Counted from the stretch's first letter, positions 1-10,800 are shown. The stretch: 64,000 nucleotides of DNA from Candidatus Latescibacterota bacterium (GCA_965222075.1 OZ244937.1:5296006-5360005); one strand, 5' to 3'. Numbers and translations: made by a program. The notes: generated from the sequence alone by a model not told the origin.

Positions 1-123
1 GTGCGAACCTGCCGAGCGGGCGCGGCGGTTGCAACAGGGGTTTCGATTAGCAAGCGCCGTGACCGCGAAGGAAGGTTGGGCGATGGGGCGAATGCCCCAA
101 AGCCGCAGCCGGTCGTATTAGCC
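1..123 (-). repeat. attC-like site (partial, cut by window edge)
   Basis: Same architecture as the other sites: AACCT...AGGTT hairpin, GGGCGAT linker, GGGGC-GAAT-GCCCC hairpin, CGCAGCCGG-TCGT-ATTAGCC end. Confidence 0.7.
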
Positions 124-181
124 GTCCGAGCAGCCCACAGACTGCCCTTGCCAGGGTCGGCAAGGCCATCGTCTTTGACCT

Positions 182-739
182 TCACGCTCTTCGAGTCTGT
201 TTCATATCATGAGCGAATGGGTATAGTTCCCCGAAGTCCGCAGATTCTGGGCCAAATAGCTCTGCCGCTTGTCTGAAATGGACGGCCCGAACTTCCACAA
301 TCCTGCTATTCGGATCCGGATCAGCTCTGTCCTCGGTTTTTCGAACCACATCAGCCCACGATACGACTCGCACATGCTCTGGGTGCGGGAAGTGGGGCAA
401 CCTGGGGCGGTCGTTTCGAGAGACGCAGTAGTACATCCCTATCGGATGAAGTTCCCCCAGATTGCTTCTCGTTTCCTCCAATAGCTCGCGACGACCAGCC
501 TCCTCCCAATTCTCGTTGGGTTCGAGGGTGCCTCCCGGCAAGACCCATTTCCCGTTGGACCGCTTGGTCACGAGACAATGACTGTCGGAGACGAAAGGAA
601 TGATATAAGAGGAGCCACAAATAGTCGAAGCCAGTTCATTTTCGAATTTGCGGAAGTGGACATTGGGACGTAGTTGCCCATGCTCCTCACTCAGGGTGGG
701 GTATTTCGAGATGAGCTTGTCGAACTGCGTACGGTCCAT
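182..739 (-). CDS. NUDIX hydrolase (cassette gene)
   Basis: Nudix box PGGTLEPNENWEEAGRRELLEET. Confidence 0.88.
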   Translation of the reverse strand: MDRTQFDKLISKYPTLSEEHGQLRPNVHFRKFENELASTICGSSYIIPFVSDSHCLVTKRSNGKWVLPGGTLEPNENWEEAGRRELLEETRSNLGELHPIGMYYCVSRNDRPRLPHFPHPEHVRVVSWADVVRKTEDRADPDPNSRIVEVRAVHFRQAAELFGPESADFGELYPFAHDMKQTRRA

Positions 740-806
740 GTTAAAGGCTACGTGTGGTTTTCTGGCGGCGCGTCCTGCGCCGCCCCTGTCTTGCGGGCTG
801 CTTCGC

Positions 807-887
807 GGCTAACGTATCGCCGTGCCCGAGCCGCGCAGCGGTTGCGCGAAGGGCGTAAGCCCGAAGCCGGGCACGGACGTGTTAGCC
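807..887 (-). repeat. attC-like recombination site
   Basis: + strand: GGCTAAC-GTATCG-CCGTGCCCG-[AGCCGC GCA GCGGTT]-GCGCGAA-[GGGC GTAA GCCC]-GAAGC-CGGGCACGG-ACGT-GTTAGCC. Confidence 0.88.
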
Positions 888-898
888 GAAGTATGAAT

Positions 899-1564
899 TC
901 ACTTGAGGTTGCGTATTGTGCTCGGCAACTCGTCAAGATCGTCAACAACCGCATCCACAATCTCAGGCACCTCCCAGTACTCATCTCGCTTCCAAATCGC
1001 TTTCATCCCGAAGGACTTGGCGCCCCGAACGTCGGCCTCCGGGTTGTCGCCAATCATGATAGCCTGATCTGGTGAGACGCCCAGGTTGTCGGTCGCACGA
1101 CGGAAGATCTCCGCATCCGGTTTTGCGACCCCTTCTGCTTCCGAGATCAACATTGTGTCGAAATAGCGAGAGATTCCCAAACCATCAATCTTCGGCTGCT
1201 GCGAATCAACTCGCCCGTTCGTAACGAGCCCCATCTTTAAACCTTGTTGCCTGAGTATGGTAAGAGTCTGATGTGCCTTAGGAAACGGAACGCATATATG
1301 GGGAAAGTATGTCAGGAAGTCCTCCAGCAACCTCTGCCAAATACCGGGTGAGAGAGCAAAGTCGCGTTCAATGCTCCTAAACAGCCCCTCCTTCTCGGCG
1401 TGGCCATGTGCGTCCAACTCAATGACTCGCTCCATGTATTCGGCAAATGGAAGAGATTGAAGATCATTTGCTAGTCGTTCGACCTGAATATGCAGGTACA
1501 CTCTAAGGCTACTGATCCGATCCAATAGCGTTCCGTCAAGATCGAAGAGCGCTGCTTGAAACAT
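899..1564 (-). CDS. HAD-superfamily hydrolase (cassette gene)
   Basis: Motifs FDLDGTL, LVTNG, KPD and IGDNPEADV. GGAGG RBS upstream. Confidence 0.92.
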   Translation of the reverse strand: MFQAALFDLDGTLLDRISSLRVYLHIQVERLANDLQSLPFAEYMERVIELDAHGHAEKEGLFRSIERDFALSPGIWQRLLEDFLTYFPHICVPFPKAHQTLTILRQQGLKMGLVTNGRVDSQQPKIDGLGISRYFDTMLISEAEGVAKPDAEIFRRATDNLGVSPDQAIMIGDNPEADVRGAKSFGMKAIWKRDEYWEVPEIVDAVVDDLDELPSTIRNLK

Positions 1565-1590
1565 TTGTACCTCCAGTCGGACTCCATTTC

Positions 1591-1660
1591 GGCTAACGGT
1601 CTCGCGGGCTGCGAACCCGCGCAGCGGGTTGGTGCGGAGGCGCAGCCCGACGTGTTAGGT
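1591..1660 (-). repeat. attC-like recombination site
   Basis: GGCTAAC-GGTCTCG-CGGGCTGCG-[AACCCGC GCA GCGGGTT]-...-CGCAGCCCG-ACGT-GTTAGGT. Confidence 0.88.
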
Positions 1661-1686
1661 GCAGTGGCATTCAGATTCGTGTCTGG

Positions 1687-2133
1687 CTATTTCAGGCTCT
1701 TCCGAAAGAAGACCTCACTTGCAGGACCCGTGGGAGTCCCTGTCAGAATACCGCAGTCTTCGAAACCCATATGGCGGTGCCATTTCTGAGGGTCCAATTC
1801 ATCCAGCTGAGAGGAACTAAGTAGATATGTGAATCCCTTCTCTCGGAGATAACATTCTAGAAAACCAAGCATAGACCGCCCCACACCCTGTCTTTGATAC
1901 TTCTTCAAGACTATGATCCCGCTGATGTAGGGCGCGCTATAGTGATGGCCCTGCCAGATGAACTGAAATTCCAGGACACCAACCGGCTCTCCATCCAATT
2001 CCGCAACGATAAACTCCTTTAGCCGGATCTTCGTTTCCACTACATCCACGGTTTCTATTGAAAGCGTATGCTTGCACCATTTGGCGTCCTCGTCCTTCGC
2101 AAACCTCACGACCGTGTCACTAGACCTTGTCAT
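1687..2133 (-). CDS. GNAT family N-acetyltransferase (cassette gene)
   Basis: Acetyl-CoA motif YQRQGVGR and C-terminal WHRHMGF. Confidence 0.85.
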   Translation of the reverse strand: MTRSSDTVVRFAKDEDAKWCKHTLSIETVDVVETKIRLKEFIVAELDGEPVGVLEFQFIWQGHHYSAPYISGIIVLKKYQRQGVGRSMLGFLECYLREKGFTYLLSSSQLDELDPQKWHRHMGFEDCGILTGTPTGPASEVFFRKSLK

Positions 2134-2195
2134 GAAAGTACCAGCCTTTGTAAGAGATGGAGGACTTCGCCGAGAGGTCGAGACTGCGCCATTGC

Positions 2196-2293
2196 GCCTA
2201 ACGTTCCCGCCACTTGCGAGCCCCGAGCTTGTCGAGGGGTTGCCGACAGGACAAGGCGCCGTAGGCGACGCAGCGCAAAACGCTGTGTTGGGC
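2196..2293 (-). repeat. attC-like recombination site (more degenerate)
   Basis: GCCTAAC...GTTGGGC with an internal AGCCCC...GGGGTT hairpin in the conserved position. Confidence 0.75.
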
Positions 2294-2321
2294 GAAGGAG
2301 CACGTCTTTTAGGGTATCATC

Positions 2322-2546
2322 CTATGCTTCGAGAAACTCCTCTGTTGTTACCCCAGCTTGCTTCAAGATTGCAGACAAGGTTCCTTCCGGTAAATCCCCA
2401 GGATGGTTGGGGATCGTCGTTCGGCACCGGGTAGCAGGATTCCACCAGATTTCATGGCTCCCTCGTGCATGCCGATCAAACTCAAATCCCAACCGTCTCA
2501 GTTTTCCAGTTATTTGTCGATAGGTGAAACCTGCAAGACGTCCCAT
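2322..2546 (-). CDS. hicA: HicA family type II toxin (mRNA interferase)
   Basis: LRRLGF...RGSHEIW...TTIPNH...GTLSAILKQAG. Coupled to the upstream hicB. Confidence 0.92.
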   Translation of the reverse strand: MGRLAGFTYRQITGKLRRLGFEFDRHARGSHEIWWNPATRCRTTIPNHPGDLPEGTLSAILKQAGVTTEEFLEA

Positions 2547-2791
2547 CAGGCTCCTACCAGTATGTCCAGTTCAACAACCTCAGTATCCAGCGTTTGCAAT
2601 CCTTCTGGGAGAGGATCACCGTGTTCACGGTAGGATTCAATCAGTTTTCGTGCCACATCCTGTGCAATCTCAGTTGTTTCGGCCACTGTTCTGCCTTGAG
2701 CAACTAAACCAGGAAAGCTATCCGAAGTAGCTAAAAATTGGCCGTTTTCAACTTTCTGCACTTGAAGATGCAATCTATATTCTTCTGACAC
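2546..2791 (-). CDS. hicB: HicB family antitoxin (short, no C-terminal DNA-binding domain)
   Basis: FLATSDSFPGLVAQGRTVAET...GDPLP HicB-like motif. Overlaps the hicA start by 1 nt. Confidence 0.88.
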   Translation of the reverse strand: MSEEYRLHLQVQKVENGQFLATSDSFPGLVAQGRTVAETTEIAQDVARKLIESYREHGDPLPEGLQTLDTEVVELDILVGA

Positions 2792-2858
2792 GGCTCATGC
2801 TCCTGTTTGGTGAATAAGGTTAGCTTTTTCGCGTCAACAAACCCTGAGAATATTGACG

Positions 2859-3254
2859 TTAAGTTTTTCTATGCATAACTACCTGTTGAGTAACCCGAAA
2901 TTTGCAACTTTTATAGAGAGAGGTCAATTCGGGGTCACAAAATAAAGAGACGATATCGATATCAGCTAGTTCCTCAAGAAGTCGCCTGAGCACAGCTTTT
3001 GCAATACCTGTACGATGATCGGGGTGTACTGTTACATCTTCTATATAAGCACGGAAATGCCCGTCTAGCACCGCGCGCGCAAATCCGATCAAGTCCTCTT
3101 CCTTCCAAGCACCCACTGCAGGATTACGGTTAAGAACGTCAGTAATATCCTGTAGAGAACGCTCCGGACACCACTCATTGGCAGCATAAAGACGACGTAC
3201 AGCATCTGCCGGTATAGGATGCTCTTGATGAGTGCGAATCACGTAATTTACCAT
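2859..3254 (-). CDS. GNAT family N-acetyltransferase (cassette gene)
   Basis: LIGFARAV.DG..AYIEDVTVHPDHR.GIA. Start moved to ATG 3254 (3281 also possible) because the longer ORF runs into the attC site. Confidence 0.82.
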   Translation of the reverse strand: MVNYVIRTHQEHPIPADAVRRLYAANEWCPERSLQDITDVLNRNPAVGAWKEEDLIGFARAVLDGHFRAYIEDVTVHPDHRTGIAKAVLRRLLEELADIDIVSLFCDPELTSLYKSCKFRVTQQVVMHRKT

Positions 3255-3309
3255 TTCAGCGCAGGTATTAATGGAAACCATGGTTGAACAAATATTGGTT
3301 TGCTCTTTC

Positions 3310-3395
3310 GCCCAACGTTTCCGCGGGCTGCGAACCTGCGAACCAGGTTGGGTCGGAGGTGCGAATGCGCCGCAGTGCAAACTGATGTGTTAGCC
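3310..3395 (-). repeat. attC-like recombination site
   Basis: GCCCAAC-GTTTCCG-CGGGCTGCG-[AACCTG CGAAC CAGGTT]-...-CGCAG...-ATGT-GTTAGCC. Confidence 0.82.
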
Positions 3396-3416
3396 GAAGT
3401 CGATCTATTTCCAAGG

Positions 3417-4154
3417 TTACATTTTTCTGACTATGAAGTATGCACGTCTGCCCAGCTCATAGGGCTCGCAATCCAGTGACGAAAAAGTATCGCACACCTC
3501 GAAACCCACCTCGGAAAAGAGAAATGTCAACTCTCGAAACCCGTAGACCCGCATAGAGCTTATCTTCGTCTCGGAAATTCCGTTCGCAACCAAAGTCCAT
3601 TCAGTATCGATCCGGCTCTCCACGTGTCGGTAGTTCGTGTCCTCCAGGACAACTGTTTCACCTGCTTTGCTCCAACCGCGGAACCGGAGTCTTGGGAGTA
3701 TTGTTTCAGCGACGTTGGGAATATCCAGAGCAAACCTCGAACCAGTCTTGAGCGCTCGATGCACTGCCTCAAGGAATCGCCTATTTCCGTCGTCGTCGAA
3801 GTATCCGAAACTTCCCCAAAAACAGAATGCCGCATCGAATGTCTCAATCCAGGACAGATCCCTCATATCCGTCTCGACAAGCTCAAGATCAAGATTCGCT
3901 TCTTGTGAAGCGGATTGCGCCTCTTGAAGAAGGACTGTCGTGATGTCAACGCCAGTTACTTTATAGCCTCTCTCAGCCAGCGGAATCGCCAATCTACCAT
4001 TGCCACACGGCACATCGAGAACCCGACACCCTGGCTTCAAATTGAGCGCGCGCACGAGAAAGTCTACCTCTTCTGAAGTACGCCCTGCTCGCGAGTTTCT
4101 TTGAACGTCGAGCCAGTTTCCCGCAAAAAAAGTGGTCCACCACTCAGTACTCAC
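3417..4154 (-). CDS. Class I SAM-dependent methyltransferase (cassette gene)
   Basis: VLDVPCGNGR, VTGVD, DMR, FDAA, SFGYF. GTG start after GGAGG. Confidence 0.9.
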   Translation of the reverse strand: MSTEWWTTFFAGNWLDVQRNSRAGRTSEEVDFLVRALNLKPGCRVLDVPCGNGRLAIPLAERGYKVTGVDITTVLLQEAQSASQEANLDLELVETDMRDLSWIETFDAAFCFWGSFGYFDDDGNRRFLEAVHRALKTGSRFALDIPNVAETILPRLRFRGWSKAGETVVLEDTNYRHVESRIDTEWTLVANGISETKISSMRVYGFRELTFLFSEVGFEVCDTFSSLDCEPYELGRRAYFIVRKM

Positions 4155-4194
4155 GTTTAACCTCCAATCTCGGGTCACTCCAACATTCGATTTC

Positions 4195-4278
4195 AGCTAA
4201 CGTTTTCGCCGTGCCCGAACCGCGAAGCGGTTGGGCGAAGGGCCGTATGGCCCGTAGCCGGACACGGACGTGTTAACC
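4195..4278 (-). repeat. attC-like recombination site
   Basis: AGCTAAC-GTTTTCG-CCGTGCCCG-[AACCGC GAA GCGGTT]-GGGCGAA-[GGGCC GTAT GGCCC]-GTAGC-CGGACACGG-ACGT-GTTAACC. Close relative of the 807-887 site. Confidence 0.9.
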
Positions 4279-4365
4279 GCAGTGGGCATGACACCAATGA
4301 AGCTCGCAAATCAAAATGAGTGCCAAACAGAAAACACGCCAAGAAACTACCCTGGAGATATTGCT

Positions 4366-4884
4366 TCACAAGGTAAAGGAAGTATGCTTTCTCCACTTGC
4401 CGTTGCGCTCCATCATAAGCCAAACCTCTTCTGCGCGACTCTTCATCGGCAGGTATGATTCAGCATTCGATTGAAATTTCTCGACGATTGCTTCCAACGC
4501 AACTGCATCATCCGCATGTGCTACGGTAAGGTGAGGGTTGACGGAAGAATAAGCCCCTTTGTAGGGTGGGTGGTCCGGAAATTGATTTACCAGAGCTTGA
4601 GTCATTCTTTTGAACTCATTATCGGGCTCCGGATGCAAATAGAGGACACCTGGAAACCTACGCACCTCGACAAGGAAAAAGTCGAACGGATGGAAACTCT
4701 GAATCACCTCCCGGACTTCAATGACACTGTTTCTGGTGATGGCCTCTCGATCCAGAAACGGATAGAGTAGAGTGATATGGGCAGGGATCCCCGCCTTGGC
4801 TGCGGGATCGTATCTACTTCGATACGCCCCAACCAATTTCTCCGCCTTGGGCACCGGAATTAGGATTGCCGATTCGTCTGGCAT
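4366..4884 (-). CDS. 2'-5' RNA ligase / 2H phosphoesterase family protein (first cassette)
   Basis: Two HxT motifs: AHITLLYPF and PHLTVA. Confidence 0.88.
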   Translation of the reverse strand: MPDESAILIPVPKAEKLVGAYRSRYDPAAKAGIPAHITLLYPFLDREAITRNSVIEVREVIQSFHPFDFFLVEVRRFPGVLYLHPEPDNEFKRMTQALVNQFPDHPPYKGAYSSVNPHLTVAHADDAVALEAIVEKFQSNAESYLPMKSRAEEVWLMMERNGKWRKHTSFTL

Positions 4885-4920
4885 TTTGCGAAATCACTGG
4901 ATGGAAACATCTTACCCATT

Positions 4921-4995
4921 GCGGTTAACTACGGGATTACCGAACAGTTACGGTAATACGCGCCAGATCTGAGGATTTCCGAACGTTCGGGAACA
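4921..4995 (-). other. attI-like primary recombination site
   Basis: GCGGTTAAC (4921-4929) is the exact complement of the first cassette's far end (GTTAACCGC, 4272-4280). It is not followed by an attC stem, but by two related palindromes, TTACCGAACAGTTACGGTAA and TTCCGAACGTTCGGGAA, about 40 bp apart. Confidence 0.6.
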
Positions 4996-4997
4996 TT

Positions 4998-5394
4998 TTG
5001 TTAATATTGGTTTTTGCAAGCCCGGTCAAACGCTTTCTGTACCGACCGCCCGGTCACCCGGTCTGGCGCCCGGGAACAGCCATGTTCGGGGTTGATATTG
5101 GCGCCTGTAGTCTTGAACCGCCTTCTGTGCGACTGTGGAGAGCATCGTGTAACGATCCTTCCGGTGCTTGCCCTGGCGGATATGGAGCAGTTTTCGATCC
5201 CCGTCGATGTCTTCGACCTTCAACCGGACCACTTCACCCAGCCGAAGGCCTCCGGAATAGGTCAACAGCATGATCGCCTGGTGCTTCAGGTTTTCTACTG
5301 CATCCAGTAACCGAAGCACTTCTGCCCGGCTCAACACAGTGGGCAATTTGTGCTCCTTTTTCGGACGGGGCAGGTTTTCAAGAGGATATTCCAT
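4998..5394 (-). pseudogene. Truncated, frameshifted tyrosine recombinase/integrase
   Basis: LPRPKKEHKLPTVLSRAEV...YSGGLRLGEVVRLKVEDID...IRQGKHRKDR...WLFPG. Continues after frameshifts as RSVQKAFDRAC / TNINK. The N-terminal domain and the HxxR/H/Y catalytic end are absent. Confidence 0.88.
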
Positions 5395-5772
5395 TGAGGT
5401 CTTCTCTCGGCATTGCGGCTGAAAAAAGTGGATTGGCTTTGCTTTCAAACAAATCCCGTGCCGTAGAGACCGCTAACGGAGAACAATAAATGAACCTGTT
5501 GTGAAATTAGTGTCAGATGGGAGAATATCCTTTTTTAAACAGACCTTTCAGGTTGCTGATTTGTTTCAAAACAGACCGTTCAACGCATTCAGAAAGTACC
5601 ATATCCGAAGCGCTGAGAACGTGAACCTATTGTATTTTCAGGTCGTCGTATTGCCCCAATAAGGCGCTCACGGGATGGCGGAAGAGGGGCTGTGGGCGCG
5701 TTATCAAGCGCAGACGGTGATACAGGCGGCTCCGGCGGGTGTAGAGGCGTAAGCGCTGACTGAAGTAAAGGG

Positions 5773-5801
5773 TTGACCGGGGGTGCCCTGCAATATATAT
5801 T
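5773..5801 (+). promoter_or_regulatory. Sigma70-type promoter (copy 1 of a duplicated element)
   Basis: TTGACC-N17-TATATT upstream of the 5876 ORF. Confidence 0.6.
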
Positions 5802-5875
5802 TTTCATGACCCCCGTGTTGAGGAACGGTGTCAGTCCGGCGATAATGAACCGATAGCACGCAGAAGGAGCCACCA

Positions 5876-6706
5876 ATGAATGCGAACAAGCCCCCGCAGA
5901 CGTCCACGCCCACCTACACCATGGGGTACAGCGACGAGTTTCAGGAGATGCTCAAACACCGCAGCGCGGGCACCCATGCCGCGCACCTGCTCCCATACCT
6001 CAAGCCCGGTCTCCGCGTTCTCGACTTCGGGTGTGGGCCCGGTACGATTTCGGTGGGGCTCGCACAGGCGGTGGACCCCGGGGAATTGCACGGCATCGAT
6101 ATGGAAGCGTCGCAGATCGAGATGGCCCGAACTGCGGCGGCGGCGGGCGGGCACGACAACGCGGTATTCCATACCGGTGATGTGACCGATCTGCCCTTTG
6201 CCAACGACTCGTTCGATGTCGCCCACTGCCACGCCGTGCTCACACACGTTCCGGATACGCAGGCCACCCTGGCCGAGGCGAAGCGGGTGTTGAAACCCGG
6301 GGGGCTCATCTCCAGCCGGGAACTGATTGGCGCCGCGTCGTTCGTCGATCCCGACCCCGGCGACCGCGGCGAGATGTGGGCGACGTTCTTGAAACTGCTC
6401 GCGGGCAACGGGGGCCATCCCCAGATGGGGAAGGAACTCAAGCGGGCGTTTCTCGACGCCGGATTCTCGGATATCCGTGCAAGTGCTTCATTCGATTCCT
6501 ACGGCACGACCAGTGACATCGACAGGTTTTATGGGGTCGCCATCGGCTGGTTCTTCGCCCCCGATACTGTGGAAGCGGCCACGAAACACGGGCTGGCATC
6601 TCACGAGCAGTTCGATGACTGGCGCCGGATGCTCGACCAGTGGAAGGATGCCCCTGGTGCATTCGCCACCGTCGCCTGGGGAGAGGCGATCGGACGTAAG
6701 CCGTAG
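5876..6706 (+). CDS. UbiE-like class I SAM-dependent methyltransferase
   Basis: VLDFGCGPGTI, LPFANDSFDVAH, RVLKPGG. AAGGAG RBS. Confidence 0.92.
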   Translation: MNANKPPQTSTPTYTMGYSDEFQEMLKHRSAGTHAAHLLPYLKPGLRVLDFGCGPGTISVGLAQAVDPGELHGIDMEASQIEMARTAAAAGGHDNAVFHTGDVTDLPFANDSFDVAHCHAVLTHVPDTQATLAEAKRVLKPGGLISSRELIGAASFVDPDPGDRGEMWATFLKLLAGNGGHPQMGKELKRAFLDAGFSDIRASASFDSYGTTSDIDRFYGVAIGWFFAPDTVEAATKHGLASHEQFDDWRRMLDQWKDAPGAFATVAWGEAIGRKP

Positions 6707-7053: not shown

Positions 7054-7461
7054 ATGAGCGGTGAAACAGTGAAGTGGCCGATTGTAGAGCGGTGGGACAG
7101 CCATCCCCTGGACCTGAAGGATCCCCTGGAGCGTTTCAAGCGCTCGGAGTGGAACTACTTTTTGGTTGACCAGGAGTCGGGGGTGCTGATGGGCTACTGG
7201 CTGGCGGAGGAGGGAGCCGAAGATTTGGGCGGAGACGAGTTCGACGAGGTGATGCACGTTATCGAAGGGAAGCTTTACGTGACCTGTGAGGGAGAGGCGT
7301 ATACCGCCGGGCCGGGGGATACGATCGTGGTGCGTCCCGGCCGTCCGACCCGGATCGCCGCACGGGAGTTGACCCGGGCGTTCTTCGTCTGCTACTCGAT
7401 GTCGGACCCGGAGGCGTTCGAGGCGAGGATGCATAAAAGGATGGCGGAGAAGGGGCTGTAG
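7054..7461 (+). CDS. Small cupin (EutQ/DUF861-like)
   Basis: MGYW...DEVMHVIEG.L.V...YTAGPGD. AAGGAG RBS before ATG 7054. Paralogue at 48361. Confidence 0.8.
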   Translation: MSGETVKWPIVERWDSHPLDLKDPLERFKRSEWNYFLVDQESGVLMGYWLAEEGAEDLGGDEFDEVMHVIEGKLYVTCEGEAYTAGPGDTIVVRPGRPTRIAARELTRAFFVCYSMSDPEAFEARMHKRMAEKGL

Positions 7462-7615
7462 ACCCGTTCTCAGTGTGACATCCAGCGCGAATATAGGCCC
7501 AGAAATCGCCGCATCGCTGAAGTTAATTTTTCTACGATTTAGGGGGGGGTATAAGCCTTTGTTTTTAATGAGACTATGCGCCCCCATTTTTACGATGATC
7601 CAGGCTGAAAAAAGC

Positions 7616-7644
7616 TTGACAGGATAGGCGAAGCTGTTTATCTT
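7616..7644 (+). promoter_or_regulatory. Sigma70-type promoter for TonB receptor operon 1
   Basis: TTGACA-N17-TATCTT in an AT-rich intergenic region. Confidence 0.6.
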
Positions 7645-7826
7645 TAGTAGTGAGAGATTGTCACTTGTACGAATCATCCCGTCAACACTGAAAGGGGTGG
7701 TGCTTGCCGAGTAGATGGCTAAGGTCGTGAGGCACTGAATCGGAGGTGAAGAGGTGTCTGATCCAGAGCCTCGATCTGACGATAGGGTTCAAAAGTAGCC
7801 GGGGTTTCTCACCAGGAGGTTGTAGT

Positions 7827-10800
7827 ATGAGACGTGTATACTTGTTGTTTGGCATTGTTCTGAGCCTCTGCCTGCTGGCCGGTCCGGTGTGGTCGCAGAC
7901 GACCGGTAAGATCACCGGTAAGATGACCGATCCAAACGGTGAGCCTCTGCCGGGCGCCAACGTGGTGATCGAGGGCACCCGCTTTGGGGCGACGACCGAC
8001 GCGGAGGGCATCTACGTGATCCTGGGCGTAGAGCCGGGCTTCTACGAATTGAAGGCTTCGATGGTCGGTTACGAGGCAGTGATCCGCACGAACGTGCAGG
8101 TGGCTGCGTACCGGACCACGGAGGCGGATTTCACGCTGCGGGAGTCGGCGATCGAGGCGGCGGAGATCGTGGTGACGGCGGGGCGGCCGCTCATCGAGGT
8201 GGACCGGACCGGGAGCGAGGCGAAGATCTCGGAGAAGGAGATCGAGCAGCTCCCGATCCTCCGGGAGACGAGGGATCACCTCCACTATGTGGCGGGGGTG
8301 GATCCGGTGAGGAATAGTGGTATTAATGGGGTGATCATCCGGCGCTCAGATAACTTTCGGATTCAGCAGTTACAGGCCTGGACGTTTGACGGCATCGAAT
8401 TGACGCTCCTGGACAACGGGACCTCGGGGTCGCTTCTGTGGGGTCAACAGTACAACAACACGAATGTGACGGCTATCGGCGAGATGGCCGTTGTGAGAGG
8501 GGGACAATCCGCCTCGCAGGCCCAAAATGCCTTCGGTGTGGTGAACATCATCACCCGCGAGGGGACGCGGGTTCTCCACGGCGGCCTCGACGTCCGGATC
8601 GAGCCGTCGGGCAAGCGGCACCACGGGCCGAACGTCTACGACGCCACCCCCGGGCAGCAGGGGGGTGCGAACGGGATGTGGCGGGACAAGCTGAAGTGGA
8701 ACGATCCGGACTGGGTGAACGAGGCCGACCCGGTCACCGGGAAGCAGATCCACGTGAAGCAGGACTACGAGGGCGCTGTCGGACACTTAGTGGAGGGGTG
8801 GCTCACCGGGTCGCTGGGTGAGAACGCCACGTTCGTCTTGAGTGCCAGAACCGGCCGGTCCAAGCAGACCTTCCCGGCTCCGCAGAGGACCAGCCTGCGC
8901 CAGCGGCACATCTTCGGGAAGCTCAGTTTCACGCCGTCCGACAACCTCAAGTTGAAGTTCGGCTACCACGACTCGTATGAGCCCACCTGGGGTCGAGGTG
9001 ACCAGAGAGGGGTGAACAGCAACCTCTTCCTGGTCCGGGACCGGGGGCATACGGGGTATGAGAGGCGGTGGAAGAACCGGATCGTCTACCTGACGGCCAC
9101 CCACACGCTCGGCCCGAAGACGTTCCACGAATTCCAGATCGGGTTCTACGGGACGAACGTCGATACAACAGAGGAGACCGACGGGGCGACGAGTTCCTGG
9201 CGGAGGGACGAGAGCGGGAACTTCAACGTGGATCGGAAGATTCGGAATCTGCAGGTTGACCACAACCGGCGCTACAACTTCCGCTACGCCATCACCAGCC
9301 AGATGAGCCGGTGGAACCTGGTCAAGACCGGGTTTACCCATCAGATCTTCCACAACGCCAACTGGCATTTACAACAGGGGAGCCCGAGCGGTGCCACGAT
9401 CTGGGTCATGGGCAAGGACGGCGTGCCGGGCACGCGGTATGTCGTCCACCGGTTTGCGTGGTACGCCGAGGACAAGATCGAGTTCCGGGGCATGGTCGTG
9501 AACGTGGGGCTCCGCTACGACGCGATGTGGGGCGGGCCCAGGAAGACGCTGGCGGGGTTTTACAAGGCGACGCCGCAGCATCGGACGTACAAGGCATTCC
9601 TGACGCGCACGCCCCGGGCGCAGGGGAAGGCGCTGGCCTACTGGTCGCCCCGGGTCGGCGTTTCACACCCGATCACGGCCAGGTCGGCCATCCGGTTCTC
9701 GTTCGGCCGCTACTACAAGCCGACGTCGTTCGGGCAGATATATTCCGAGTCGTGGGCCACCAACGACTTGCTCAACCACCCCAACCTGGACGGTACCTGG
9801 GGAAATGGGGGCAAAGCGGGCGGGGGCTGGTATCTGGACCATATAAACCGCAGCCCGTCGGGGAGCCCGAATTTGACTGAGTTCGAGGTGTCCGGGGCCT
9901 GGAACTTTTTGAGCAACTACGTCTTAGACATGGCCACCTACTACCGGCGGACGGAGCGCGCGACCGGCGGGAATAACCGCTATTACGTGGACCCGGTACG
10001 GGGACAGGGTCAAGAACGGACGCAGGGGCCTTTTGCCCGTGCGGAGTCCAAGGGCTTCGAAATGGCGGTCTACAAGCCCCTGTCCCAGAACTTCGCCTTC
10101 CGGTTCTCGGTGGACGTGGGCTGGTCTTTCTACTATTTCACGGGCGCCGCCCCGGTCCTCACCCACATCTACCCCGACTCCACCTACATCGCCGGCCCGA
10201 ACTACTTCTTAGTGGATACGAACGACGACCCGGTGCTGTTGACGGACACACAGATCCGCGATCTCGGCCACAAGGCCAACGAGACCATCCGGAAGGTGCG
10301 GGAGCAGTTGACCAGGCAGGAGCAGGTCACGGATATCTTGACGCCGCTTAAGCCCCTCTCGGAGTGGCCGGGCATAAGCGGCGAGGATCGGAGTCGGCCC
10401 GAAATCCAGGGCCTCTGGTATTCATCCACCTGGAGATCGCTCAAGAACGCTGCGTGGGGTCCGCCCGCGCCGACCACACAGGCGACGTTCCAGTTCCTCT
10501 GGTCCACCCCGTCCGACTGGGGGCCGGGGCCGACTGTGGGCGGGTCGAAGCTGTTGGGCGGCATCCAGGCGAACCTGGTCTGGCGGTTCAACAGCGGGGT
10601 CAACTTTGCGCATACGCCGCCGGACAACCCGAAGGTGGTCGATGCCTTCCGCTCTGGACCGATGTTCGTCCGGGCGGACCTCAACTTCCAGAAGACGTTC
10701 GAGGCGGGTACGGGCCGGCCCACGCTCTACGTTGAGGTCTTCAACCTTTTCAATACCTATCTGGACCAAACCCGCAACGCCAACTACGTCCGGTGGGGGC

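Follow-up and report, generated by a model that had tools for sequence, protein, structure and literature searches.

A decayed tyrosine recombinase without the IntI insertion at the head of a canonical attC array in a Candidatus Latescibacterota bacterium: a probable integron-like cassette platform

Integron integrases (IntI) are tyrosine recombinases with a specific insertion of about 35 residues near patch III. In the accepted view this insertion lets the enzyme use folded attC sites, and detection tools define integrons by it. Here we describe the beginning of a 64,000-nucleotide stretch from a Candidatus Latescibacterota bacterium (GCA_965222075.1, OZ244937.1:5296006-5360005; the whole stretch is called the window, and positions are counted from its first letter unless given in kb or as contig coordinates), which forms the end of a single contig of 5.36 Mb. 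Six gene cassettes stand there behind the remnant of a recombinase that belongs to the Xer/IntI-like neighbourhood and has no IntI insertion. We consider it reasonably probable that the locus is the head of a sedentary integron-like cassette platform with a non-IntI recombinase from a clade next to IntI. An original prediction, made from the window alone, had proposed a cassette platform run by such an enzyme, and the comparisons reported below support it, the recombinase being the presumed catalyst.

From position 1 to about 5700 the G+C content is 43-57%, compared with 60-66% beyond, and all sizeable open reading frames (ORFs) of this part lie on the - strand. The elements preceding the cassettes are as follows.

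5449..5673, - strand: conserved leader preceding the recombinase start, which forms the left edge of the platform unit that a kin genome shares
4999..5394, - strand: decayed non-IntI tyrosine recombinase with native start MEYP at 5394; PF00589, E 3.7e-15
4929..4998, - strand: attI-like site; contains a palindrome of 12 bp, the direct repeat TTCGG(A/T)AAT twice and ATTACCG as an inverted pair

As predicted, the recombinase remnant adjoins the array directly upstream on the same strand as the cassettes. Its frame is open from 5448 to 5026, and past a frameshift the homology runs on to about 4999. It is 91% identical over the retained part to an intact 376-residue relative, P0001, and exactly 23 residues separate KDR from WLF, the count given by the original prediction. 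The claim that the local copy is dead also holds, as alignments reveal three lesions: an internal deletion in frame (about residues 5-176 of P0001), a gap of 8 nt after WLFPGARPG, and a 3' deletion from inside the gene to about 60 nt beyond the stop. Native leader and start are retained, and the leader is 84% identical to the stretch upstream of the recombinase in kin genome G002, with homology stopping at about 5673. The remnant scores about equally on the NCBIfam XerA-type, IntI and XerC/D models; because it is a fragment, it falls far under every cut-off. A promoter and terminator scan of positions 4800-5900 gave no usable call.

Four further decayed copies are present in the genome, at 416 kb, 697 kb, 3408 kb and 3535.5 kb. 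The 8-nt gap is common to all four copies that cover its site (window, 416, 697 and 3408 kb), and these therefore descend from a copy that was already dead. A homopolymer sequencing error was considered for the common frameshift and rejected, as the gap measures 8 nt relative to intact relatives. The fragments at contig positions 3408625-3410400 and 416071-422624 have differing 5' and 3' break points, with co-oriented attC sites 1.5 kb and 6 kb downstream, respectively. In a family profile search of the genome, the other intact tyrosine recombinases were only two Xer-like proteins, at least 79 kb from any attC site. Since every copy of the recombinase in this genome is broken, the arrays are now frozen.

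The six cassettes occupy positions 1-4928 on the - strand and have canonical attC sites as bounds. The inter-ORF elements measure 75-145 nt, start with ..TAAC and end with ACGTTA.., and what had been predicted as six cassettes with AAC...GTT-bounded sites was confirmed by R1, a covariance model built from the attC sites of this genome and run on the window with filters off.

4201..4928, - strand: cassette 1, LigT-like 2'-5' RNA ligase, ORF 4884-4366 (PF13563, E 1e-24); attC 4282-4193, R1 88.7 bits
3316..4200, - strand: cassette 2, SAM (S-adenosylmethionine) methyltransferase, ORF 4178-3417 (PF13649, E 2e-19); attC 3399-3308, R1 63.7 bits
2202..3315, - strand: cassette 3, GNAT at about 3281-2859 (PF00583), HicB-like ORF 2791-2546, HicA toxin 2546-2322 (PF07927)
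2297-2194, - strand: attC of cassette 3, R1 55.1 bits
1597..2201, - strand: cassette 4, GNAT acetyltransferase 2133-1687 (PF00583, E 1e-12); attC 1664-1589, R1 64.2 bits
813..1596, - strand: cassette 5, HAD hydrolase 1564-899 (PF00702, E 1e-27); attC 891-805, R1 74.9 bits, DNA fold z -6.1
1..812, - strand: cassette 6, NUDIX hydrolase 739-182 (PF00293, E 3e-14); 144-nt attC from 124 past the window start, R1 40.2 bits

The array has seven attC sites in all, one straddling the window start and one wholly outside it. It runs about 0.9 kb beyond the window start, where one further cassette (a methyltransferase) lies with its attC. No attC was found between GNAT and HicB/HicA in the third cassette (2322-3315, - strand), so that all three genes share one cassette; the HicB-like ORF has no Pfam match. 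Going by the Pfam names, the cargo is typical unrelated cassette cargo.

An iterated nhmmer search found 57 attC sites genome-wide, with clusters elsewhere at 972-982 kb, 3446-3471 kb and 4158-4175 kb and several singletons. The attC alignment took in 45 of the 49 full-length sites of the genome, the four longer than 118 nt being left out. In these 45 sites, 82% of the cells in the R''/R' and L''/L' helices pair, compared with 27-38% with a slid partner; changes on both sides are seen in 18 of the 22 helix pairs, and the covariation of 0.397 (0.172 in shuffles) was reached by none of 500 shuffles. Five of the window's sites belonged to the training set of R1; the 144-nt site at the window start did not, and it nevertheless scored 40.2 bits. 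On the window, R1 places the attC sites on the - strand at 40-89 bits, and its sole + strand match is a 10.7-bit echo. Each cassette thus ends in an attC site, the ORFs are co-directional with the attC top strand, and the sites are canonical attC in canonical orientation relative to the ORFs. The long site (contig 5295986-5296129; window 124 outward) owes its 144 nt to an internal insertion, and sites of 140-165 nt with an insertion at the same place recur in this genome, in kin genome G007 and in a Gemmatimonadaceae array (L092). An attC scanner based on R-box complementarity and duplex energy was dropped as unusable in this GC-rich DNA, giving 373 matches in a 300-kb control and 32 in a 30-kb array, on both strands.

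The boundary between recombinase and array is conserved. Downstream of the near-intact gene in kin genomes G002 and G018 lies a conserved stretch of about 95 nt, a block that the window retains at 4998-4929. The attI-like end of the original prediction is accordingly borne out by five aligned copies from three genomes (the window, 3535.5 kb of this genome, one copy of G002 and two of G018). The 12-bp palindrome, both TTCGG(A/T)AAT boxes and TAGTTA are invariant in all five, and the similarity ends right after TAGTTA (G|TTA); in the window the crossover, G|TT, lies between 4929 and 4928. Between G002 and G018, flanking core genes are 86% identical, compared with 96.6% for the recombinase and block. 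Their homology stops at the crossover, and the arrays beyond have one attC in common and nothing else, while the first cassettes of this genome, G002 and G018 are mutually unrelated. Arrays start 60-150 nt past the recombinase stop, at the conserved site. A fixed left arm with cassette turnover at G|TT is, on sequence comparison, an attI signature; an attI-type site beside the recombinase gene with insertion at G|TT is thus seen, by comparison of copies only.

In this genome a block profile search gave two copies and no more. That at 3535.5 kb heads the cassettes of 3527-3535 kb and possibly also the entire - strand series, with its interruptions, as far as 3446 kb. The block was also considered as an attC site and rejected, because its repeats are direct and it forms no long hairpin. 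R1 with filters off (positions 1-4500) gave no attC in the interval from the block to the first attC; for the block itself the coverage was by the filtered genome search only. In G018 (L059, 11700-14570) two tandem platform remnants each have their own attI block; they are separated by a toxin-antitoxin pair of the domain-of-unknown-function (DUF) type, the N-terminus of the downstream recombinase copy is foreign, and an IS4-like transposase sits within the array at 7236-8600.

The conservation of this unit could also be explained if leader, gene and att site formed a small mobile element that inserts at arrays, recombines only its own site and hitch-hikes. The higher identity of unit than of flanks between G002 and G018 fits such an element, as do its different chromosomal places in this genome and in G002/G018, the five decayed copies here, the tandem pair in G018, and copies inside arrays in G003 and G020. 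However, past the crossover each copy is followed by a different sequence, always a cassette, as expected from cassette insertion at an attI-like site. The same head position moreover occurs with divergent geometry in another sub-clade, for which a single type of inserted unit is insufficient, and no second end or target duplication was found, no systematic search having been made. We regard a hitch-hiking unit as quite improbable and the platform as the better account of the conserved boundary.

Recombinases of this kind also stand at array heads in other genomes. The kin set comprised 41 genomes, in which 20-kb loci around matches were searched with R1. The recombinase is patchy there (9/41 genomes). 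An array lies downstream and co-oriented in five of the nine kin loci that are not of IS91 type (L059, L061, L063, L064 and L065, from G018, G002, G004 twice and G038); two lie inside arrays (L066 and L070, from G003 on the opposite strand and from G020 as a fragment), and L062 and L073 have no array. The otherwise intact recombinase of G002 is split in two overlapping frames near residue 110 (L061, 10595-10760), which may be a real frameshift or a sequencing error. Within the phylum, 25 of 168 genomes had a match at E 1e-70, and 15 loci had usable flanks: six are at the head and co-oriented, five at the head and divergent, four without an array, and none at a tail. The divergent loci encode a short form of 293-312 residues, likewise with 23 residues from KDR to WLF.

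For other phyla, the best 80 of at least 595 loci from species representatives were taken, of which 31 are of IS91 type, one is a true IntI (L164) and 48 are others, many of these with less than 3 kb of downstream sequence. At least seven of the 48 have R1 arrays, six at the head and co-oriented (Thermodesulfobacterium, Latescibacterota, Gemmatimonadaceae with six sites, Spirochaetota, Ignavibacteriota and Flavobacteriales) and one, from Patescibacteria, at the head and divergent. Repeat finding, with no model confirmation, also gave repeats with attC-like ends on the downstream side in Flavobacteriia (L114, L101) and in L124, and upstream in L132 from a Firmicutes metagenome-assembled genome (MAG). 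Arrays in AT-rich phyla rest on such repeat finding, and the strand there is not fixed by a model. L196 of the phylum set and L091 (Latescibacterota) have the same attC spacing, look like one locus and were counted once. All scored loci with an array have the recombinase at the head (five among kin, 11 in the phylum and seven in other phyla), and no tail position was found. Intact or near-intact homologues are associated with arrays in kin, phylum and other phyla. The geometry is co-oriented for long forms and divergent for a short-form sub-clade; the earlier statement that integrases are usually transcribed away from the array stands for IntI, while the present family has both arrangements.

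No IntI was found in this genome, as judged by TIGR02249 matches over the cut-off, and a tblastn search with the IntI-specific segment gave no match in this genome or in the array-headed loci. A canonical integrase elsewhere in the genome that could recombine these sites, which the original prediction had named as a possible refutation, is thus not in evidence. TIGR02249 passes its cut-off in two of the 41 kin genomes (G004, G036), and R1 has attC matches in 30 of the 41. Among platform genomes, IntI was found in one of ten from other phyla (G043, about 1.3 Mb from the platform) and in one of ten from the phylum (G108). Several of the genomes searched are single contigs of 91-98% completeness, and absence from a MAG is no proof.

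These counts bear on the reading of the locus as an ordinary cluster of attC sites lacking integron integrases (CALIN), in which a canonical IntI, lost or acting in trans, assembled the cassettes and the recombinase is a bystander, for instance a decayed relative of the IS91 accessory enzymes. The locus does have at least two attC sites and no IntI nearby (seven attC sites, no TIGR02249 match over the cut-off genome-wide), and judged from IntegronFinder's rule of an attC cluster with no nearby combination of PF00589 and IntI-specific matches, it would be called a CALIN. The canonical attC sites favor this explanation, as do the presence of IntI in the lineage (G004, G036, G043, G108), the lack of a recombinase remnant at most large arrays of the genome, and the inclusion of IS91 accessory recombinases in the recombinase clade. 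In addition, passages of Cury et al. 2016 (PMC4889954) report 50 non-IntI recombinases beside attC sites in complete genomes and judge tyrosine recombinases without the IntI region not to be involved. A bystander, however, should occur at heads and tails alike, whereas the 5+11+7 scored arrays have it at the head and never at the tail. The array moreover begins shortly after the stop at a conserved site, with genomes diverging exactly at G|TT; IntI is missing in 39 of 41 kin and 18 of 20 other platform-bearing genomes searched; and tblastn found no IS91 transposase in this genome or the long-form loci. A CALIN is defined by absence, whereas here a specific recombinase clade and an attI-like site stand at the array head and recur across lineages. 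Bystander status for the recombinase is therefore, in our judgement, unlikely. The original prediction had let the link between recombinase and array rest on adjacency; attI conservation, the recurrent head position, IntI absence and the tree described below take it further than that.

In the intact relative P0001, about 95 N-terminal residues precede a SAM-like domain (PF13495) and a tyrosine recombinase catalytic domain (PF00589, E 1e-41). Its KDR-WLF interval is 23 residues, compared with 54 in the true IntI of kin genome G004, which scores 464 bits on TIGR02249. P0001 reaches 213 bits on this model (cut-off 265), and its match is split in two around the missing insertion. The insertion is missing in all homologues inspected, from kin, phylum and other-phyla loci, so the possibility that homologues carry the IntI patch found no support in direct counts or in the split match. 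Direct counts were used because a regular-expression distance from KDR to HxLRH was noisy and misplaced one IntI. An AlphaFold model of P0001 (mean predicted local distance difference test [pLDDT] 82) has VchIntIA bound to attC (2a3v) as its best solved-structure match (E 4e-16, 33% identity) and XerA as its second; archaeal XerA (5hxy, 4a8e) is 27-30% identical to the predicted core. The model has no counterpart of the IntI insertion, and its N-terminal domain is absent from VchIntIA and XerA.

The N-terminal domain, modelled alone (pLDDT 90), adopts a predicted beta-beta-alpha-beta-beta-alpha fold, and a W...W.P motif is conserved in it among 23 long forms. Foldseek with this domain gave no match at E 0.001; its top match was the HARP domain of SMARCAL1 (4o66) at E 0.06, which is weak and within the chance range. 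VIA-align gave Z 5.3 for UvsW, 4.6 for the XPB damage-recognition domain and 3.8 for HARP, values that chance could give, and Pfam HARP (PF07443) matched three of three proteins at a sub-threshold E of 0.03-0.06. HARP, the XPB damage-recognition domain and the UvsW N-domain have folds that are structure-specific DNA-binding modules. The matches are weak and thematically coherent, and the domain is possibly HARP-like, a likeness that we take as a lead. In the Bacteroidota long forms L097, L103 and L104 the N-terminal domain aligns at residues 85-183, which suggests two tandem copies as in paired-HARP proteins.

The phylogeny for which the original prediction had called, against IntI, Xer and IS91-associated enzymes, places the recombinase outside the IntI clade and beside it. 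The tree is a quick IQ-TREE search on 97 rows, rooted on the two Xer proteins of the genome, with support from the Shimodaira-Hasegawa approximate likelihood ratio test (SH-aLRT) only; three truncated rows (L125, L127 and the G038 fragment) were dropped. The four IntI rows group together (SH-aLRT 99) with none of the 88 non-IntI rows among them, and these 88, comprising every non-IntI relative, make up a neighbouring clade (SH-aLRT 92). Within that clade, the IS91 partners form one nested clade (SH-aLRT 94), whose sister is a 17-row group with the window's family (joint support 97), and array-headed members are scattered through the rest. We tentatively suggest, with slightly less than even confidence, that a second widespread lineage of attC recombinases exists without the IntI insertion, a neighbour of IntI from which the IS91 partners derive, with a long co-oriented form that has a HARP-like, structure-specific DNA-binding domain at its N-terminus and a short divergent form, and that it heads a sizeable share of CALINs in environmental phyla.

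The accessory recombinases of IS91 elements, whose gene lies directly upstream of a Y2/HUH transposase, are 46-51% identical to P0001. Their SAM-like and catalytic domains are arranged as in P0001, the IntI insertion is likewise missing, and they too lie upstream of the element that follows, on its strand. They differ in being followed by an IS91 transposase, and not by an attI-like site and cassettes, and in having about 280 residues, no N-terminal domain and a single nested clade. In the 31 IS91-type loci from other phyla the Y2 transposase is directly downstream and none has an R1 attC match. In the window no Y2/HUH transposase lies directly downstream of the remnant, and neither this genome nor the long-form kin loci gave a Y2 transposase match in tblastn with two queries at E 1e-5. 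The multi-copy matches of 283-314 residues in G007 and G004 are IS91 elements, with recombinase followed by Y2 transposase. G007 has six copies of an IS91-type element of about 2.5 kb (L067, 8466-10980, and five more), one of them inserted in an attC array and one beside a single attC. In G004 (L072, 8504-11960; also L071) a canonical IntI of 338 residues is followed 370 nt on by an IS91 unit of accessory recombinase and Y2 transposase. The arrangement occurs a second time with a truncated IntI; the accessory recombinase has a third copy elsewhere, and R1 gave no attC within 10 kb. The attC consensus contains GTTC, a target reported for IS91.

A housekeeping or regulatory role of Xer type, such as dimer resolution or an inversion switch, with the gene merely a preferred landing place for cassettes, would agree with the scores of P0001 on the NCBIfam XerA-type model NF040815, which it passes narrowly (222.7 bits, cut-off 220), and on the XerC/XerD models (181-189 bits), and with XerA as second-best structural match. 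Yet two separate intact Xer-like genes are kept far from any attC, and the recombinase is dispensable, with all copies in this genome dead, patchy among kin, and present in several copies in some genomes. Such a role is very improbable.

Under the platform reading, the recombinase would bind a double-stranded attI-like site just 3' of its own gene through the TTCGG(A/T)AAT and ATTACCG boxes, and would also bind folded single-stranded attC hairpins. Strand exchange would take place at G|TT; circular cassettes would enter at the array head and leave between attC sites, in integron fashion. In long forms the structure-specific contact with DNA for which IntI uses its insertion may come from the N-terminal domain of about 65 residues, which is possibly HARP-like. 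With gene and array on one strand, transcripts that read through from the recombinase gene may contribute to expression of the first cassettes. What the comparisons show is the anatomy, the point of crossover, the head position conserved among lineages and the lack of IntI; catalysis, the single-stranded substrate and the role of the N-terminal domain are inferred.

Several points weigh against the platform reading. The attC sites are entirely canonical, so IntI could have made them, and three platform-bearing genomes hold IntI elsewhere (G004, G043, G108). For IntI, Messier and Roy 2001 (cited in a passage of PMC4889954) reportedly found that activity requires the insertion, and recombination by members of this clade is a proposal drawn from comparisons. 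Many clade members have no array (4/15 in the phylum, 2/9 among kin and most of the 48), which is only partly explained by short flanks and by the training of R1 on the GC-rich sites of this genome. Decayed recombinases are frequent (this genome, G018, G020, G038 and probably G002). No platform remnant adjoins the largest arrays here (972-982 kb, 4158-4175 kb and most of 3446-3471 kb), and several kin genomes have 10-16 attC matches and no recombinase copy at E 1e-40. Kin genomes are moreover not independent counts, the tree comes from a quick search without bootstraps, and the HARP likeness is weak on all three measures (Pfam E 0.03-0.06, Foldseek E 0.06, Z 3.8-5.3).

Among known systems, chromosomal (sedentary) integrons with inverted IntI, such as those of Treponema, are close to the platform; the existence of inverted integrons is noted in part of PMC4889954. 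Both have a cassette array with canonical attC sites, an attI-type site with G|TT crossover between gene and first cassette, and toxin-antitoxin cassettes. The recombinase here differs in lacking the IntI insertion, scoring under the IntI cut-off and falling outside the IntI clade; in place of the insertion it has an additional N-terminal domain. Smyshlyaev et al. 2021 (PMC8138268), in the passage concerned, call the insertion 'not fully conserved' in an integron-like subgroup and 'essential for integron function'. For Antarctic metagenomes, a passage of Antelo et al. 2021 (PMC8435808) gives 2080 CALINs and 54 intI genes. A full-text literature search of incomplete coverage turned up no account of insertion-less recombinases at the head of attC arrays.

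Should this clade move cassettes, many of the arrays termed 'integrase-less' in environmental genomes would be complete platforms, and the origin of integrons and the role of the insertion would need rethinking. The unexplained accessory recombinase of the IS91 family would gain a plausible ancestry, and the IS91 link would tie together two mobility systems that use single-stranded DNA. In that case cassette capture would be older than the IntI-specific domain or would not depend on it, and may not need the classical integron integrase.

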